A stretch of 64,000 bases of DNA, taken from positions 1,696,001 to 1,760,000 of the forward strand of contig OZ242005.1 of NCBI GenBank assembly GCA_965204725.1, written 5' to 3'. The notes under the pieces were generated by a model, which worked only from the letters and a program-made list of their open reading frames with translations, did not search any database and was not told the origin of the DNA. Positions 18,900 through 26,394 of this stretch are shown here, piece after piece. Positions within the stretch are counted from its first letter, which is position 1. The number at the start of each line of letters is the position of its first letter. The DNA is from Candidatus Latescibacterota bacterium (lineage in GTDB: Bacteria; Latescibacterota; UBA2968; UBA8231). The position numbers and the translations under genes were made by a program.

Positions 18900-19184
18900 A
18901 TGACTAAAGCCGAGATCGCCCAGCAGCTAGCCCGGAGTACGGGCCTCTGCCAAGTGGATACCGCGGCCGTTATCGAGGGCTTCATCGAAGCCATAGCCCA
19001 AGCCCTATCGGAAGGCGACCACGTCGAAATCCGCGGCTTTGGCACCTTCAAGGTCGTGGACCGCGCGCCGCGCACCGGCCGCAACCCTAAAGCCGGCGCG
19101 ACCATCGCAATCCCCAAGCGCAAGGCCCCGACCTTTAAGCCTTCCAACGCCGTAAAGAGCCGAATAGTCCAGCGCGAACCATGA
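18900..19184 (+). CDS. HU/IHF family DNA-binding protein
   Basis: MTKAEIA...VEIRGFGTFKV..RAPRTGRNPK...PTFKPS. Confidence 0.95.
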   Translation: MTKAEIAQQLARSTGLCQVDTAAVIEGFIEAIAQALSEGDHVEIRGFGTFKVVDRAPRTGRNPKAGATIAIPKRKAPTFKPSNAVKSRIVQREP

Positions 19185-20296
19185 ACCTGCTGTTGATTTC
19201 GGTCGATAGCTTGCGCTTGGATTTTGCCCCGGGGATTCATGCGGCCGAGCGCACCCCCCGATTTTCCGACTTGACGCGCGATTTCCACATCTGCCAGCGC
19301 TGCTTTTCGGTTTCTTCGGCAACTCGCCCGGTCCACACCTCGCTTTTTACCGGGCTGTACCCGTTTGAACACGGCATTGAAGGCCAGCAGTCGCCCGCGA
19401 TGCGGCAGGGCGTTGCCGACCTCTTTGACCTGTGCCAGCAAGCGGGCTATGGCGTAGGCGCGTTCTCAGAGGCTCCGGGCATTTTCACCGGTCTGAGCTA
19501 CGCCCGCCACATCGCCCCCCTGCCCGCCGACGAGCAGCTAGTCGGCTGGCTACAACGCCGCGAGCCGACCGTTCTCTTTGTTCACTATTGGAGCGTTCAT
19601 CCCCCTTATGGGGCCGCAGACGGGCGGGCCTTTGGGGAGGTGGGCCGGTTGCTAGCGGCGGGGCGCATCGACTTGGTAAAGGCGCGCTATCGCGCTGCCA
19701 TTGAACAGCTCTTTGAACGGCACATCGCCCGGCTGCTAGCGGCCTTGGACCGGAGCGCGTGGGCCGTTTTCATCATCAGCGACCACGGCCAAAGCTGGCG
19801 GGCCGACGAACCCTATCACGGTCATACCCTGTGCAACGACGTGCTGCGGGTGCCTTTGTACTACCGCCTGCCCGGCGCGGACAACCCCGCCCCGGGACGC
19901 GGGTTAATCTCCCTCGTCGATCTTTTCCCTACCTTCTTGTCACTCTTGGAGTTAGCGCACCCCTACCGCGGCTTTGCCCGCGACATTCGCTCCCCGCTCA
20001 TGCCCGATTACTACCTCGCTGAAATCGACCCCGGCCCGACAGCCCCCCATCATGGCCGCCAGTGGTCGCTGTTTGACGAGGACGCCAAATTCAGCTACGA
20101 CGAAGCGACGCAGCGCGAGCACTTAGTCGCCACCTTCAGCGAAACGCCGCGCTCGGCCTTGGGCCACACCGACCAGTATCATGCGGCTTATGCCGCGCTC
20201 AAGGCCGCGTCGAACTACGGGCATGCGGATTGGGGACCGGCCGCCGATCGCACGGTATTGGAGCAGCGGCTGCGGCAGCTAGGCTATCTGGAATAA
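19181..20296 (+). CDS. Sulfatase-like/alkaline-phosphatase superfamily hydrolase
   Basis: NLLLISVDSLR, TRPVHTSLFTGLYPFEHG, HYWSVHPPY, ISDHG, HGHTL, VPL, SLVDLFPTFL, RLRQLGYL. Confidence 0.88.
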   Translation: MNLLLISVDSLRLDFAPGIHAAERTPRFSDLTRDFHICQRCFSVSSATRPVHTSLFTGLYPFEHGIEGQQSPAMRQGVADLFDLCQQAGYGVGAFSEAPGIFTGLSYARHIAPLPADEQLVGWLQRREPTVLFVHYWSVHPPYGAADGRAFGEVGRLLAAGRIDLVKARYRAAIEQLFERHIARLLAALDRSAWAVFIISDHGQSWRADEPYHGHTLCNDVLRVPLYYRLPGADNPAPGRGLISLVDLFPTFLSLLELAHPYRGFARDIRSPLMPDYYLAEIDPGPTAPHHGRQWSLFDEDAKFSYDEATQREHLVATFSETPRSALGHTDQYHAAYAALKAASNYGHADWGPAADRTVLEQRLRQLGYLE

Positions 20297-20299
20297 ACT

Positions 20300-21871
20300 T
20301 CACGCTCGTTCCACCTCAAAAGCGACCACGTTGCGCGTCTCTTGGCTAAACTCCACACCCACGAGGTAAACCGCTTCCCCCCGTGAGCGATACTTGGCCG
20401 CGTAGTCCCGCGCCTGCAACTGACCCAATGCCGCCCCCGACGACACCCGCTCCACCACCTTGAACTCGAACAGATACACGTTCCCATTAAACTCCACCGC
20501 CATGTCCAACCGCCCCGCCCGGCTGCTGTCCTCCACCGTGACCGAAAGCCCCAGCGACGCAAAGTACGAGTAAAACACGCTGGCGTAATAGCCCTCGTAG
20601 TTGGCAATCTCGTTGTTGGTGTGCCACTGGTAGGGAATGCTGGCAAAGAACGCCTCGAACAGCGTTTCCAACCCCTCGAAGTCGTTGACCAGCAACAGGT
20701 CGTACAGCCGAGCCATGTGCTCAACCCGGCGCGAGGGATTGCCCGTCAGGTGACTCAGCAAGCTCTTGTTCAGGCTCTGCTGCACCTCTCGGTTAGGGTA
20801 GCCCAGCCGATAGAACATCTCCCCGCCGCGCGACTCGGCTCGGCGAATGGTCAAGTAGCCAGTCTGGAACAGCAGCGCCTCGGTCGCAATGTGATCCACG
20901 TCAAACGCCGACAGCAACTCCTCGCTGCTGAGCAGCCCCTCCAACGCCAGCGCACTCACCCCTCGCGCTAACAGCATCTCAAGCAGAAACGTCGGCGTTC
21001 CCGTCTCAAACCAGTAGGCACCAAAGGCGCGACGACGAAACAGTAACAACACGTCAAAGGGGTTGTACACCTGTTCCTCGCCCAGCCAGTTGTACCCATT
21101 GTACCACGTGCGGATTTCTTCTCGGTCCAATCCGGGCAGTTCCGCGGCGAACACCGCGTCTAAGTCCGCCTCGGTATAGCCGCAGATCGCCGAGTAGTGC
21201 GGGTCCAAGGTGATGTCGATGAGGTTGTTGAGGCCGGAGAAGAGGCTCACCTTGGAGAATTTGCTCACCCCGGTGAGGAAGCTAAACGCGATGTGCGCGT
21301 CGCAGTCCTTAATCGTCGCATACAGCCCGCGCAGAAAGTCGCGGTTGGCACGCGCCACCTCCGGCACCTCGAGCGCGTCTAAAATCGGCTTGTCATACTC
21401 ATCTATCAGTAGCACCACCCGCTGGCCGGTCTGTTGATGCAGCACCTTCAGCATATACCGGAAACGCCCCCGTGCCGTGTCATAGCTGGACCGGACCGGA
21501 ACCTCGCTCTCTACCTCGTTCAACTGCTCCATCACGTCTTTGTGCAGGTCGCCCGGCTCCTTGAAATTGCCGCTGCCAAAGCTCAACCGCAGCACCGGAT
21601 GGCGCACCGACCAGTCCCACTGAGGATGGATCGCCAACCCCTTAAACAGCGGCTCGTTGCCCGCAAACAACTCCTTCAGCGTGTCCAAAAACAGGCTCTT
21701 GCCAAACCGACGAGGACGAGACAGAAAGTAGTGCGTACCCTCGGCCACCAGCCGCGCCATGTACGCGGTCTTATCGACGTAGTAGTAATTCTCTTCCCGA
21801 ATCGTGCGGAACGTCTGAATGCCGATGGGCAGCTTGCGCTTGGCCGAATCTTCAGGGGTGATCAGTAGCAT
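20300..21871 (-). CDS. AAA-ATPase-like plus PD-(D/E)xK nuclease protein, copy 1 (523 aa)
   Basis: KLPIGIQTF, YYVDKT, Walker A SRPRRFGKS, Walker B LIDEYD, GVSKFSK, YWFETGTP, EGYYAS, GRLD...FEFK. ATG 21871 has GAGGTGG upstream. Confidence 0.93.
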   Translation of the reverse strand: MLLITPEDSAKRKLPIGIQTFRTIREENYYYVDKTAYMARLVAEGTHYFLSRPRRFGKSLFLDTLKELFAGNEPLFKGLAIHPQWDWSVRHPVLRLSFGSGNFKEPGDLHKDVMEQLNEVESEVPVRSSYDTARGRFRYMLKVLHQQTGQRVVLLIDEYDKPILDALEVPEVARANRDFLRGLYATIKDCDAHIAFSFLTGVSKFSKVSLFSGLNNLIDITLDPHYSAICGYTEADLDAVFAAELPGLDREEIRTWYNGYNWLGEEQVYNPFDVLLLFRRRAFGAYWFETGTPTFLLEMLLARGVSALALEGLLSSEELLSAFDVDHIATEALLFQTGYLTIRRAESRGGEMFYRLGYPNREVQQSLNKSLLSHLTGNPSRRVEHMARLYDLLLVNDFEGLETLFEAFFASIPYQWHTNNEIANYEGYYASVFYSYFASLGLSVTVEDSSRAGRLDMAVEFNGNVYLFEFKVVERVSSGAALGQLQARDYAAKYRSRGEAVYLVGVEFSQETRNVVAFEVERA

Positions 21872-22004
21872 GGGCTGAATCCACCTCAACGTTGGCTTGG
21901 ACAGCTATGGACCTATAACCGACAAGATAGAAACTACCGGGAGAACTCATGCAAAGAAAACTCCCCTGCTGGAATACGTTCCGCTAGACGCTGGACCGTA
22001 CGCC

Positions 22005-23576
22005 TCACGCCTGTTCCACCTCAAAAGCGACCACATTGCGCGTCTCTTGGCTAAACTCCACACCCACGAGGTAAATCGCTTCCCCTCGCCCACGATACTT
22101 GGCCGCGTAGTCCCGCGCCTTCAACTGCCTGATCGCCGCCCCCGACGACACCCGCTCCACCACCTTGAACTCAAACAGATATACGTTCCCATTAAACTCC
22201 ACCGCCATGTCCAACCGCCCCGCCCGACTGCTATCCTCCACCGTGATCGAAAGCCCCAGCGACGCAAAGTACGAGTAGAACACGCTGGCGTAATAGCCCT
22301 CGTAGTTGGCAATCTCGTTGTTGGTGTGCCATTGGTAGGGAATGCTGGCAAAAAACGCCTCGAACAGCGTTTCCAACCCCTCAAAGTCGTTGACCAACAG
22401 CAGGTCGTATAGCCGAGCCATGTGCTCAACCCGGCGCGAGGGATTGCCCGTCAGGTGACTGAGCAAGCTCTTGTTCAGGCTCTGCTGCACCTCTCGGTTA
22501 GGGTAGCCCAGCCGATAGAACATCTCCCCGCCGCGCGACTCGGCTCGGCGAATGGTCAGGTAGCCAGTCTGGAACAACAGCGCCTCGGTCGCAATGTGAT
22601 CCACGTCAAACGCCGACAGCAACTCCTCGCTGCTGAGCAGGCCCTCCAACGCCAGCGCACTCACCCCCCGTGCCAACAGCATCTCAAGCAGAAACGTCGG
22701 CGTTCCCGTCTCAAACCAGTAGGCACCAAAGGCGCGACGACGAAACAGTAACAACACGTCGAAGGGGTTGTACACCGCCTCGTCGCCCAGCCAGTTGTAC
22801 CCGTTGTACCACGTGCGGATTTCTTCTCGGTCCAATCCGGGCAGTTCCTCGGCGAACACCGCATCTAAGTCCGCCTCGGTATAGCCGCAGATGGCCGAGT
22901 AGTGCGGGTCCAAGGTGATGTCGATGAGGTTGTTGAGGCCGGAGAATAGGCTCACCTTGGAGAATTTGCTCACCCCAGTGAGGAAGCTAAACGCGATGTG
23001 CGCGTCGCAGTCCTTAATCGTCGCATACAGCCCGCGCAGAAAGTCGCGGTTGGCACGCGCCACCTCCGGCACCTCGAGCGCGTCCAAAATCGGCTTGTCA
23101 TACTCGTCTATCAGCACCGCCACCTGCTGGCCGGTGCGCTCGTGCAACGCTTCGAGTAGATGGCTAAACCGCGCCGGCGCCCCAGCGCAGTCCGACCCGA
23201 CACCTGCCCGTCTTTCCGCCGCGGCCAGTTGCGCCAGCACGTCCTCTTGCAGTTCGCTTGGCTGCTTGAAGTTGCCCCTGCCGAAGCTCAGCCGCAGCAC
23301 CGGATGGCGCACCGACCAGTCCCACTGAGGGTGGATCGCCAACCCCGTAAACAGCGGCTCGTTGCCCGCAAACAATTCCTTCAGCGTGTCCAAAAACAGG
23401 CTCTTGCCAAACCGACGAGGACGAGACAGAAAGTAGTGCGTACCCTCGGCGACCAGCCGCGCCATGTACGCGGTCTTATCGACGTAGTAGTAATTCTCTT
23501 CCCGAATCGTGCGGAACGTCTGAATGCCGATGGGCAGCTTGCGCTTGGCCGACTCTTCAGGGGTGATCAGTAGCAT
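22005..23576 (-). CDS. AAA-ATPase-like plus PD-(D/E)xK nuclease protein, copy 2 (523 aa)
   Basis: Same motifs and identical 1572-nt length as copy 1. Confidence 0.93.
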   Translation of the reverse strand: MLLITPEESAKRKLPIGIQTFRTIREENYYYVDKTAYMARLVAEGTHYFLSRPRRFGKSLFLDTLKELFAGNEPLFTGLAIHPQWDWSVRHPVLRLSFGRGNFKQPSELQEDVLAQLAAAERRAGVGSDCAGAPARFSHLLEALHERTGQQVAVLIDEYDKPILDALEVPEVARANRDFLRGLYATIKDCDAHIAFSFLTGVSKFSKVSLFSGLNNLIDITLDPHYSAICGYTEADLDAVFAEELPGLDREEIRTWYNGYNWLGDEAVYNPFDVLLLFRRRAFGAYWFETGTPTFLLEMLLARGVSALALEGLLSSEELLSAFDVDHIATEALLFQTGYLTIRRAESRGGEMFYRLGYPNREVQQSLNKSLLSHLTGNPSRRVEHMARLYDLLLVNDFEGLETLFEAFFASIPYQWHTNNEIANYEGYYASVFYSYFASLGLSITVEDSSRAGRLDMAVEFNGNVYLFEFKVVERVSSGAAIRQLKARDYAAKYRGRGEAIYLVGVEFSQETRNVVAFEVEQA

Positions 23577-23722
23577 GGGCTGAATCCACCTCAACGTTGG
23601 CTTGGACAGCTATGGACCTATAACCGACAAGATAGAGACTACCGGGAGAACTCATGCAAAGAAAACTCCCCTGCTGGAATACGTTCCGCTAGACGCTGGA
23701 CCGCACGGTGATGCCGTGCGCC

Positions 23723-25294
23723 TCACACCCGTTCCACTTCAAAAGCGACCACATTGCGCGTCTCTTGGCTAAACTCCACGCCCACGAGGTAAATCGCTTC
23801 CCCGCGTGAGCGATACTTGGCCGCGTAGTCCCGCGCCTGCAACTGACCCAATGCCGCCCCCGACGACACCCGCTCCACTACCTTGAACTCGAACAGATAC
23901 ACGTTCTCATTGAACTCCACCGCCATGTCCAACCGCCCCGCCCGGCTGCTATCCTCCACCGTGATCGACAGCCCCAGCGACGCAAAGTACGAGTAAAACA
24001 CGCTGGCGTAATAGCCCTCGTAGTTGGCAATCTCGTTGTTGGTGTGCCACTGGTAGGGAATGCTGGCAAAGAACGCCTCAAACAGCGTTTCCAACCCCTC
24101 GAAGTCGTTGACCAGTAACAGGTCGTACAGCCGAGCACTATGCTCAACCCGGCGCGAGGGATTGCCCGTCAGGTGACTCAGCAAGCTCTTGTTCAGGCTC
24201 TGCTGCACCTCTCGGTTAGGGTAGCCCAGCCGATAGAACATCTCCCCGCCGCGTAGCTCGGCCCGGCGAATGGTCAGGTAGCCGGTCTGGAACAGCAGCG
24301 CCTCAGTCGCAATGTGATCCACGTCAAATGCCGACAGCAACTCCTCGCTGCTGAGTAGCCCCTCCAACGCCAGCGCACTCACCCCCCGTGCCAATAGCAT
24401 CTCAAGCAGAAACGTCGGCGTTCCCGTCTCAAACCAGTAGGCACCGAACTGGCGGCGGTCGAACAGCAGGAGGACGTCGAAGGGGTTGTACACCTGTTCC
24501 TCCCCCAGCCAGTTGTACCCGTTGTACCACGTACGGATTTCTTCTCGGTCCAATCCGGGCAGTTCCGCGGCGAACACCGCGTCCAAGTCCGCCTCAGTAT
24601 AGCCGCAGATCGCTGAGTAGCGCGGGTCCAAGGTGATGTCTTTGAGGTTGTTGAGGCCGGAGAATAGGCTGACCTTGGAGAATTTGCTCACCCCGGTGAG
24701 GAAGCTAAACGCGATGTGCGCGTCGCCAAACTTGATCGTCGCATACAGCCCGCGCAGAAAGTCGCGGTTGGCACGAGCCACCTCCGGCACCTCGAGCGCG
24801 TCTAAAATCGGCTTATCATACTCGTCTATCAGCACCACCACCCGCTGGCCGGTGCGCTCGTGCAACGCTTCAAGTAGATGGCTAAACCGCGCCGGCGCCC
24901 CAGCGCAGTCCGACCCGACACCCTCCCGCCTTTCCATCGCGACCAGTTGCGCCATCGCGTCCTCTTGTAGTTCGCCTAGCTCCTTGAAGTTGCCCCTGCT
25001 AAAGTCGAGCCGCAGCACCGGATGGCGCACCGACCAGTCCCACTGAGGGTGGATCGCCAACCCCTTAAACAGCGGCTCGTTGCCAGCAAACAACTCTTTC
25101 AGCGTATCCAAAAACAGACTCTTGCCAAACCGACGAGGACGAGACAGAAAGTAGTGCGTACCCTCAGCGACCAGCCGACCCATGTACGCGGTCTTATCGA
25201 CATAGTAGTAATTCTCTTCCCGAATCGTGCGGAACGTCTGAATGCCGATGGGCAGTTTGGGCTTAACTGGCTCTTCGGGGTCTATCAGTAGCAT
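23723..25294 (-). CDS. AAA-ATPase-like plus PD-(D/E)xK nuclease protein, copy 3 (523 aa)
   Basis: Same motifs and identical 1572-nt length from the aligned ATG (MLLIDPEEPVKPKLPIG). Confidence 0.93.
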   Translation of the reverse strand: MLLIDPEEPVKPKLPIGIQTFRTIREENYYYVDKTAYMGRLVAEGTHYFLSRPRRFGKSLFLDTLKELFAGNEPLFKGLAIHPQWDWSVRHPVLRLDFSRGNFKELGELQEDAMAQLVAMERREGVGSDCAGAPARFSHLLEALHERTGQRVVVLIDEYDKPILDALEVPEVARANRDFLRGLYATIKFGDAHIAFSFLTGVSKFSKVSLFSGLNNLKDITLDPRYSAICGYTEADLDAVFAAELPGLDREEIRTWYNGYNWLGEEQVYNPFDVLLLFDRRQFGAYWFETGTPTFLLEMLLARGVSALALEGLLSSEELLSAFDVDHIATEALLFQTGYLTIRRAELRGGEMFYRLGYPNREVQQSLNKSLLSHLTGNPSRRVEHSARLYDLLLVNDFEGLETLFEAFFASIPYQWHTNNEIANYEGYYASVFYSYFASLGLSITVEDSSRAGRLDMAVEFNENVYLFEFKVVERVSSGAALGQLQARDYAAKYRSRGEAIYLVGVEFSQETRNVVAFEVERV

Positions 25295-25426
25295 GGGGCT
25301 TGATCCTAGCTTGGGCAGGTATGGACCTATAACCGACAAGATAGCCGACCGAGACAACCCATGCAAAGAGGAATTGGCTACCGGCCGCCGATTGCACGCG
25401 CTTGCAACGGCTTCTGTGGCTTTGGG

Positions 25427-25987
25427 TTATCTCGACTGGTCTGAGGCGACGAACTTGGGTTTTAGGGCCTGATAATCGGCCCCCAAGCGGGCAAAGATGT
25501 CGGCCCATCGGCGCGGGTAGGATGGATGGCTGCTATTGGGCGCGAAGCCCAACTTGAGATAGCAGCGCAGGGCCGGCAGGCGGAAGTCGTCGGTCAGTAG
25601 GTATATGGGCCGTGGACCTAACGATTTGGCTTGGACTACCGCCGCCCCGACGATGAACTTGCCCAAGCCGCGCCCCTGAAAGGCCGGATCGACCGCAACC
25701 CAACCGATTTCCCAACAAGGCCGCAACTCGCGGGTGCGGTCATTGCAACCCGCACAGGCGACGATCTGCCCCTCGCACTCAACAAAGAGCTGGACCCGGG
25801 TTTCTTTGAGTACGCTCTCCAGCCGCTGCCGGTCCCAACGACCCAATTCGCCGTTGGCTTGCAATAGGGCCAACCAGCCCTCCTCGTCGCCCGGGCGGTA
25901 CGTCCGCAGCCGATAGCCAGCCATTGCCGACAAGTCCGGGGCCGCCGCACGCCCATACCAGAGGATGAGCTGAGGTGCGGGATTCAA
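25427..25987 (-). CDS. GNAT family acetyltransferase
   Basis: EIGWVAVDPAFQGRGLGK (motif A); LLTDDFRLPALRCYLKLGF. Confidence 0.9.
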   Translation of the reverse strand: MNPAPQLILWYGRAAAPDLSAMAGYRLRTYRPGDEEGWLALLQANGELGRWDRQRLESVLKETRVQLFVECEGQIVACAGCNDRTRELRPCWEIGWVAVDPAFQGRGLGKFIVGAAVVQAKSLGPRPIYLLTDDFRLPALRCYLKLGFAPNSSHPSYPRRWADIFARLGADYQALKPKFVASDQSR

Positions 25988-26394
25988 GTGCGGCTTTCCT
26001 GACGCCGGAACAGAGACGACTTAAACTGCTCGGGGCGATGGGGTTGGAGAACGACGATTTCGCACTCGGGGAAGGCTTCGGCCAAGCCTGCTGGCCTCCT
26101 TTGGTCGTAGCCGAGGGCAATGATGTGGGGAGCAATCTCGCCGACGATGCGCAAAAAGTTATCCCCCTCGTGGCCGAGGCGAACTTCGGCGACTTCGGGC
26201 AGCTTCACCAGCGCGGCTTCGCGCTCCTCTTGGGATTGGTCGGGATAGTACCCCTTGATGCGCCGGACGTTTTCGTCGCGGGCGACCACGACGAACAGTT
26301 CGTCGCCCAGCGCAGCCGCCTGCGCGATGAAGGAGCGGTGGCCCGGATGCAGGTAATCAAAAGTGCCGCAGCACAGTACGCGCGTTTTATTCAT
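25984..26394 (-). CDS. Cytidylyltransferase-family protein, archaeal RibL-like FAD synthase
   Basis: RVLCCGTFDYLHPGH (HxGH), GDELFVVVARD, IIALGYDQ, KSS. The VARD and LGYDQ motifs fit RibL better than TagD or RfaE. Confidence 0.75.
   Translation of the reverse strand: MNKTRVLCCGTFDYLHPGHRSFIAQAAALGDELFVVVARDENVRRIKGYYPDQSQEEREAALVKLPEVAEVRLGHEGDNFLRIVGEIAPHIIALGYDQRRPAGLAEAFPECEIVVLQPHRPEQFKSSLFRRQESRT

Follow-up and report, generated by a model that had tools for sequence, protein, structure and literature searches.

Two old hairpin classes on a homogenized scaffold in a tandem array of predicted ATPase-nucleases from Candidatus Latescibacterota

The window analyzed here is a stretch of 64,000 nucleotides (nt) from a Candidatus Latescibacterota bacterium (assembly GCA_965204725.1, contig OZ242005.1, positions 1,696,001 to 1,760,000 of the forward strand). 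It contains a tandem array of three paralogous genes, A1–A3, which encode predicted ATPase-nucleases of the DUF1703 type. Most of the sequence of these genes is kept alike by gene conversion, whereas one short segment in front of the Walker B motif, a predicted helical hairpin, comes in two classes that are far older than the scaffold carrying them. An earlier note, made from the sequence alone, had described this segment as hypervariable and the array as a diversifying one; the evidence presented below points instead to old variation. In the following, G000 denotes the genome of the window, related genomes are labelled G0xx or G1xx, and the loci studied L0xx or L1xx.

The three genes lie head to tail on the minus strand (A1, 20300..21871; A2, 22005..23576; A3, 23723..25294; or 20300–21889, 22005–23594 and 23723–25366 by the bounds of the list of open reading frames, ORFs), and each encodes 523 amino acids (aa), counted from an ATG that is conserved in relatives. 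The proteins are 91–93% identical to one another, and the genes differ by 7–9% in DNA. In all of them, Pfam detects AAA-ATPase_like (PF09820) at residues 15–211 (E 2e-64 to 4e-62, 210–218 bits, cut-off 26.1) and PDDEXK_9 (PF08011) at residues 425–516 (E about 1e-21, 74–75 bits, cut-off 25.5), which is the DUF1703 architecture; both domains also score above cut-off, in the same N-to-C order, in eight other close and three distant copies. As the earlier note had stated, the three ORFs are intact and retain their catalytic motifs. In A1, these are the Walker A motif RPRRFGKS (residues 52–59; 21695..21718) and the PD-(D/E)xK motif D456...E469-x-K471 (20459..20506), both found by direct reading, and strand β3 with the Walker B motif, VLLIDEYD (residues 153–160; 21392..21415), placed by alignment and AlphaFold, all on the minus strand; the Walker A and PD-(D/E)xK counterparts and the Walker B core LIDEYD (residues 155–160) are intact in A2 and A3. 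The same residues are intact in all 11 close paralogs of G000 and at least 90% conserved among 98 family members of 24–92% identity, with G57 and K58 invariant in the alignment of these sequences. Since both catalytic centers are conserved family-wide, the proteins are predicted to be, most likely, active NTPases and nucleases.

The copies part ways at residues 100–152, which correspond to 21416..21574 in A1, 23121..23279 in A2 and 24839..24997 in A3, all on the minus strand. Sliding-window DNA identity between A1 and either A2 or A3 is 52% at codons 121–150, compared with 91–100% over most of the remaining gene. According to identity windows, synonymous divergence (dS), the AlphaFold model and a tree of the segment, A1 carries a hairpin of type 1 (helix 108–123, loop, helix 133–148). 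A2 and A3 carry type 2, with 91% nt identity between them over the segment; the nearest relatives of the A2 hairpin are type-2 copies of congeneric genomes, at 77–79% aa identity. Between the two classes, dS reaches 1.0–1.1 over codons 96–155 and 1.7–2.0 over the core codons 105–147, as opposed to 0.12–0.21 elsewhere, and the ratio of nonsynonymous to synonymous divergence (dN/dS) across the segment is 0.23–0.36. Because its silent sites are saturated, which a sweep of amino-acid changes cannot bring about, the common ancestor of the segment must be much older than that of its flanks.

Separate trees of the two partitions tell different histories. Outside the hairpin, A1–A3 form a single clade (support 100), whose sister is the copy at the corresponding site of G110, the closest relative. 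Over the hairpin, A1 groups with six syntenic copies from other species in a type-1 clade, and A2 and A3 belong to a type-2 clade (support 98) that also contains copies of eight other loci. Approximately unbiased (AU) tests reject the tree of each partition on the data of the other (ΔlnL 80 and 376). Among 123 close homologs, G000's own proteins included, the hairpin forms four discrete classes of 57, 32, 26 and 8 sequences; between classes, hairpins are 41–58% identical and the remaining proteins 83–100%. Within classes, noisy estimates of dN/dS range from 0.09 to 0.69 in the hairpin, as against 0.08–0.17 in the rest, and lie below 1 in all 25 pairs, while hairpin dS does not exceed that of the rest in 10/10 type-1 and 9/15 type-2 pairs. 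As the within-class synonymous rate is not raised, a mutational hot spot is excluded. The discreteness of the classes, the saturated dS of 1.0–2.0 between them and the purifying selection within them, as seen in a dN/dS analysis of the kind that the earlier note had proposed, do not support the description as 'hypervariable' or 'diversifying'. The segment therefore represents preserved ancient variation or an imported patch, not the product of rapid diversification.

No donor of either hairpin was found within G000: in BLAST searches, the A1 hairpin matches only itself and the A2 hairpin only A3, and the best counterpart of the A1 hairpin, in paralog C, reaches 58% in a 90-nt window. Nor is there a sign of programmed hypervariation by a diversity-generating retroelement, a shufflon or silent cassettes, since we find no reverse transcriptase or recombinase among the flanking ORFs scanned and no silent partial cassettes, and the copies in G000 are full length and intact. 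Two histories would fit these data: A1–A3 may descend from old type-1 and type-2 paralogs whose scaffolds were later homogenized, or a duplicated type-1 gene may have received its type-2 hairpin from a donor no longer present.

That the copies exchange sequence, as the earlier note had proposed, is borne out by several kinds of evidence. The 192 variable nucleotide sites among A1–A3 are clustered in runs far from chance, and the odd copy out changes along the gene: it is A3 at nt 12–198, A1 at nt 330–471 (runs of 23 and 9 sites), A3 again at nt 822–900 (a run of 15) and A2 at nt 1443–1488 (a run of 10). The short strings quoted in that note are all present and group the copies as it had said. 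The pairwise homoplasy index (PHI) yields p≤0.001 (0/1000 permutations) in each of three sets, namely A1–A3 with the dispersed paralog B, the 11 close paralogs together, and a second array, D1–D4. In a GENECONV-like fragment test, 13 of 55 pairs contain a significant common fragment (p≤0.002). Together with the partition trees and AU tests, these recombination analyses, of a kind that had been suggested beforehand, show the mosaic to be real.

Two of the blocks can be followed to relatives of the array. The A3-specific patch (codons 274–300, FDRRQF form; 24395..24473, minus strand), which corresponds to the run of 15 sites, has a dS of 0.64–0.75, as compared with 0.05 between A1 and A2 in the same place; over codons 270–302, it is 95–96% identical in nt to copies of other species, while A1 and A2 are at most 86% identical to any other copy over this stretch. 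The A2-specific patch (codons 481–496, AAIRQLKAR..YRG form; 22089..22134, minus strand), defined by the run of 10 sites over which A1 groups with A3, is 91% identical in nt to B. Some of the conversion donors thus lie outside the array and even outside the genome, and conversion among the copies and with such donors keeps most of the gene 91–100% alike. A conspecific variant from another assembly, protein P0007, has a type-2 hairpin in which A3-like and A2-like residues alternate, so that in the population, too, the two type-2 alleles apparently exchange sequence.

The pattern recurs in other arrays. We surveyed 12 tandem arrays in ten genomes from two families of the class, which gave 23 within-array pairs; as the arrays are related to one another, the counts are descriptive and do not amount to a test. 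Three loci do not contribute pairs, namely L121 (one copy in the stretch), L124 (copies 12.6 kb apart) and L109 (a distant subfamily missed by the motif filter). The hairpin is less alike than the remaining gene in 21/23 pairs. The least-alike window of 30 codons overlaps residues 100–152 in 14 pairs, falls at residues 363–403 in six, and at 253–283 and 19–49 in one each. In the two exceptional pairs, D2/D4 and one pair of G019, the hairpins are 99% identical on less similar scaffolds, from which it follows that the hairpin can also move within a conversion tract (in D2–D4, a fragment of codons 88–201).

The array D1–D4 consists of four intact copies at G000:C1:3226158-3233548 (L106:6067-13391), between polysaccharide-synthesis genes and argJ, with a methyltransferase gene interposed between D1 and D2. 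It is itself mosaic (PHI p≤0.001), and the scaffolds of D2 and D4, which share the 99% identical hairpin, are 90% identical.

To place the segment in the protein, we turned to structure prediction, as the earlier note had recommended. The AlphaFold2 model of A1, based on the 98-sequence alignment, is of high confidence (predicted local distance difference test, pLDDT, 92.7; predicted template modeling score, pTM, 0.90), and the variable segment forms a helix-loop-helix in it. A sequence search of the PDB gave nothing relevant (best E 0.36), and comparisons were made with the model. With VIA-align, residues 12–368 of the model match the archaeal AAA+ ATPase SSO1545 (2fna_A; Z 15.6, root-mean-square deviation 3.7 over 277 residues), and residues 7–377 match CED-4, Apaf-1 and plant NLRs (Z 12.5–13.3) and archaeal ORC2 (1w5t; Z 12.5). 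The top Foldseek matches are Orc1/Cdc6-DNA complexes and Avs3, with E 1e-4 to 3e-4 for 2qby_A and 2v1u_A. Residues 308–523 resemble the PD-(D/E)xK nuclease domains of CidB and CinB (Z 11.4–12.4). According to the model, A1–A3 are thus predicted to consist of an Orc1/Cdc6- or STAND-like NTPase, with nucleotide-binding domain (NBD), lid and winged helix, to which a PD-(D/E)xK nuclease is joined at the C-terminus.

Within this fold, the two helices of the hairpin are inserted between strand β2 (residues 93–97) and the Walker B strand β3 (residues 152–157). An extra helix between S2 and H2, the initiator-specific motif (ISM), is described as a hallmark of the STAND and initiator clades (PMC6468293). 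By topology and by the spacing between Walker A and Walker B, the hairpin in our model appears to sit at the equivalent ISM-H2 position. As described in PMC5050015, resting Apaf-1 and PH0952/MalT dock their sensor on the ISM region, and once the apoptosome is active, adjacent subunits contact one another through their ISM-loop-helix motifs, which line the pore at its center. The buried face of the hairpin (L109, L117, F137, L141, L144) is invariant in A1–A3, and it is at other positions that the copies differ. A complex prediction with two copies of A1 residues 1–380 scored 0.00, which has no bearing either way on oligomerization.

The array occupies a site with an eventful history. On one side, it is bordered by a convergent sulfatase-like gene, 'S' (19181..20296, plus strand), which marks one edge of the insertion site; on the other, upstream of A3 and on the same strand as the array, by a GNAT acetyltransferase gene, 'G' (25427..25987, minus strand). 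Both were assigned with Pfam and have orthologs in 31/31 genomes of the genus. Among the relatives whose site was inspected, S and G adjoin directly in G010 (L095) and G021 (L103), with their convergent ends 2–4 nt apart, so that the array fills what is otherwise a gap of almost zero length. One copy is present at this site in G110, G002, G013, G107 and G106, and one copy with extra DNA in G001, G023, G004 and G007; the single copies are of type 1 in six species and of type 2 in three. Remnants are found in G019 (residues 12–67 and 439–488; L090:1481-1762) and G005 (residues 217–327; L091:2099-2416), a 5'-truncated copy in G014 (L102:1410-2459), and no copy in the 6-kb gap of G108. These remnants and truncations indicate that the gene is being lost by internal deletion in some lineages, whereas it is triplicated in G000. 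In G010 and G020, a type-2 copy is found at another locus, syntenic to G000 C1:3243673-3244784, where G000 itself has none.

Immediately 5' of each ATG lies a common block of about 89 nt, which the earlier note had likewise observed (A1, 21872..21960; A2, 23577..23665; A3, 25295..25383; minus strand); it is the same in A1 and A2 and more diverged in A3. Its core motif, CTRTCTTGTCGG, occurs upstream of copies of the A/B subfamily in 35 sources. This block is probably the gene's own promoter and 5' leader, judging from sequence comparison, and it resembles what we take to be the consensus of a Bacteroidota-type −33/−7 promoter. A scan with the sigma-70 consensus gave no promoters and two terminator-like sites, both within genes, and Rfam recognizes no RNA family at E≤1 in 20000–26000, upstream blocks included. 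The block (...TTTCTTTGCA-N20-TATCTTGTCGG...) accompanies copies of the A/B subfamily into different loci and genomes, and its spacer contains a GGG-N4-CCC palindrome.

The 20 flanking ORFs that we scanned (8–38 kb of the window) are all housekeeping genes, including those for Der, MiaA, an RqcH-like protein, ValRS, a MurQ-like protein, HU, HemL and GcvP/T besides the sulfatase-like and GNAT genes; in agreement with the earlier note, none of them encodes a transposase, integrase or reverse transcriptase.

Beyond this site, the family is widespread. G000 (5.43 Mb, two contigs) contains 14 copies, of which 11 are close (at least 70% aa identity) and all intact: A1–A3, D1–D4 and the single copies B, C, E and F. 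The other three, also intact, are distant (592–597 aa, 25–28% identity to A1). Together with 40 relatives, 41 genomes were searched; 32 of them have family matches, 3–21 per genome, and deep-branching members of the genus have none. Close homologs (61–87%) occur in records titled Latescibacterota, Gammaproteobacteria, Vicinamibacterales, Binatia, Spirochaetia and others, and copies from different phyla interleave in the protein tree, which suggests horizontal transfer or, in some cases, binning error. A representative library contains 19,342 clusters at 50% identity (E≤0.001), and 64 plasmid records carry a homolog, including plasmids of free-living Azotobacter, Sphaerotilus and Hydrogenophilus. 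The 35 matching records of a phage collection are all unannotated faecal fragments ('Bacteriophage sp.') of less than 40% identity, and we draw nothing from them. As the earlier note had stated, the family is multicopy in host-associated bacteria, with its function given as not known (Siozios et al., 2019; PMC6387759). The present locus is found in sequencing runs labelled sponge metagenome, one of which carries its flanks at about 98% identity, and none of the runs listed for it is of RNA; a literature search returned no paper tying the DUF1703-type family to sponge symbionts.

Some individual copies deserve mention. The distant copies of G000 lie at C1:2702742-2706317 and 2729607-2731430 (L109, L110), two of them in tandem, and one adjoins PhyH genes and two HEPN/nucleotidyltransferase pairs. 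Near-identical copies are shared between Binatia and Vicinamibacterales and between Binatia and Deltaproteobacteria records (L065/L066, L039/L042); to judge by the sequences, these pairs represent either very recent cross-phylum transfer within one community or misbinned contigs. On the Azotobacter plasmid NZ_CP066312.1 (L111), a 62% homolog lies amid toxin-antitoxin and Abi genes (RelE/ParE, HipA, MqsA and AbiEii). On the Moraxella osloensis plasmid NZ_CP068111.1 (L112:5922-8551), a 47% homolog directly follows a replication initiator and a ParA-like ATPase with a small partner and precedes a resolvase.

What might these proteins do? Tentatively, and with slightly less than even confidence in the account as a whole, we favor the following reading. 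Each protein would be a cytoplasmic, NTP-switched nuclease. Its hairpin would set which partners or ligands license assembly and cutting, so that the array may hold two specificities on one common scaffold. The likeliest arena would be genetic conflict, in which the proteins defend against foreign DNA or keep it out. Such a role would fit the two-domain architecture as well as a family that is gained, lost and degraded, varies widely in copy number, has crossed between phyla and also occurs on plasmids; at the S–G site alone, species have zero, one or three copies, remnants or a truncated copy.

A number of observations weigh against this reading. PADLOC-DB v2.0.0 gives only a sub-threshold hit of Cas4_II on the nuclease core (E 0.02–0.05, 12–13 bits), and no NCBIfam family is matched. 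None of the 14 copies in G000 lies in a recognizable defense island; their neighbors are metabolic or housekeeping genes, with no constant partner, and 14 copies are many for a defense gene. A1–A3 have no separate sensor, as Pfam finds no repeat domain and nothing follows the nuclease domain at the C-terminus. By direct reading, the first helix of the hairpin is rich in acidic residues, which speaks against a role in binding DNA like that of the Orc1 ISM. The dN/dS estimates come from only 53–60 codons, whose synonymous sites are saturated, we implemented the PHI and fragment tests ourselves, and, going by PMC6387759, no experiment on any DUF1703-type member is known.

The main rival, which we regard as possible though on the unlikely side, is that the pattern is a neutral by-product: the hairpin would be a weakly constrained surface element which, once diverged past the homology required for recombination, stops conversion tracts at its edges, with the old alleles persisting under no selection for either diversity or specificity. 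Family-wide entropy fits this view, being highest at residues 101–140 (H 3.2/2.95) but matched at 301–320 (3.13) and 381–400 (3.20); with the hairpin being only one of three such regions, weak constraint may explain part of the pattern. The six array pairs whose least-alike window is 363–403 and the higher dN/dS of the hairpin within classes point the same way, and the 99% identical hairpins of D2/D4 and the G019 pair demonstrate that tandem neighbors are not always kept different. Against this stand the conservation of every class across species, with dN/dS below 1 throughout the within-class pairs, the existence of at least four discrete classes in place of a continuum, and the occurrence of both classes at the same syntenic site in different species. 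Likewise, an invariant buried helix face with changes at other positions fits an altered surface on a kept fold.

We consider it quite unlikely that the gene is a selfish element, whose nuclease cuts empty or related sites and which is then copied in by recombinational repair, in the style of a free-standing homing nuclease. It would explain why unrelated housekeeping genes flank the copies at close range (spacers down to 1–15 nt), why the S–G site is filled, empty or decayed depending on the species, why A/B-subfamily copies bring their own conserved upstream block to different loci and why phyla interleave in the tree. However, terminal inverted repeats are absent, the search having given only weak pairs of 16–20 nt due to the repeats themselves; the paralogs C–F have no common conserved flanks, no target-site pattern was seen, and, given that deep-branching species of the genus do not have the family, vertical descent with loss fits as well. 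Mobilization by a transposon or insertion sequence (IS) was also considered and rejected, as no transposase or integrase is adjacent, terminal inverted repeats are lacking and the flanks of C–F are unrelated; an IS4/5 transposase gene lies 4 kb from F. More improbable still, in our view, is a role as secreted effector nucleases that act on a host. The Cardinium proteins are termed putative secreted nucleases in PMC6387759, the C-terminal domain resembles that of Wolbachia CidB and CinB, and the organism occurs in runs labelled sponge metagenome, but the N-terminus (MLLITPEDSAKRKLPIG...) has no hydrophobic signal-like stretch, at least by direct reading, homologs occur on plasmids of free-living bacteria and no secretion genes are adjacent. 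Finally, the array is extremely unlikely to be an artifact in which one gene from several strains was misjoined. Short-read contigs of all four runs do break inside the repeats, and none spans the array; even so, the A3–A2 junction is bridged in 4/4 runs from four studies, one of these runs probably being the source, with the A2–A1 junction being indistinguishable from it there, and unique contigs cover type-1 and type-2 hairpins in runs X1, X5 and X9. Moreover, four contigs from other assemblies encode proteins of both types, tandem arrays of the family exist in other closed genomes, and copies that differ by 7–9% in DNA lie here on a 5.38-Mb contig.

The closest precedent comes from Cardinium hertigii cCpun and midge Rickettsia, in which DUF1703 genes have expanded (Siozios et al., 2019; PMC6387759) and the same two-domain architecture occurs in many paralogs per host-associated genome. 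As in our array, the Cardinium paralogs recombine within genes, by RDP4 and PHI, and horizontal transfer was inferred for them. The expansion of the family in a symbiont, paralog recombination, horizontal origin and a function that is not known are therefore already on record for cCpun. The Cardinium paralogs, however, average 39% aa identity and are not homogenized, in contrast to the 91–93% of the present array with its one sharply bounded old segment, and that study is not known to map a preserved segment onto the structure. What is new is how sharply the ancient segment stands out from the homogenized scaffold, together with its discrete classes that extend across species, its placement at the ISM-H2 position and its recurrence in other arrays.

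More distant likenesses are structural. SSO1545, presumably a member of the multicopy archaeal COG1672/ATPase_2 group, has the same order of NTPase, lid and winged helix at only 12% sequence identity to A1. The STAND proteins (Apaf-1, CED-4, plant NLRs, MalT/PH0952, Avs) and Orc1/Cdc6 match in the core of NBD, helical domain and winged-helix domain (Z 10–13) and have a similar helix-loop-helix between β2 and Walker B; among them, Avs proteins couple an NTPase to a nuclease effector, as A1–A3 appear to do. The latter differ in having no repeat-type sensor and in carrying the nuclease at the C-terminus, straight after the winged helix. Pfam finds no TPR, WD40 or LRR sensor and no PADLOC Avs model matches, which argues against canonical STAND or Avs membership. 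In clustered plant resistance genes, tandem paralogs evolve in concert while a segment escapes conversion. The homogenized scaffold and the old discrete alleles are alike in both cases, but here it is part of the NTPase domain itself, instead of a repeat sensor, that is kept.

There is also a bolder version of the favored reading, to which we give only an outside chance. In it, the ISM-H2 hairpin would act as specificity cassette in a very large family of NLR-like nuclease receptors made of a single chain, and tandem arrays would keep a series of hairpin alleles under balancing selection on a scaffold maintained by conversion. If true, bacteria would have their own equivalent of clustered immune-receptor genes, with the NTPase domain, in place of a repeat sensor, reading recognition or self/non-self assembly.

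DUF1703-type ATPase-nucleases are abundant and have expanded time and again in symbionts, but no function is known for any of them. The locus described here is an informative new example of known gene family behavior, not a new system, and it corrects a tempting reading, as the variation in the array is old and preserved and not a sign of fast diversification. Even if the function proves to be ordinary, the array remains a clear case of concerted evolution with one escaping segment. It also constitutes a natural experiment: two proteins that are 96–97% identical outside the hairpin (up to 0.97 in protein and 0.96 in DNA) carry hairpins of two ancient classes. Given scaffolds this similar, swapping the hairpins would be a clean probe of what this family senses or with which partner it assembles.

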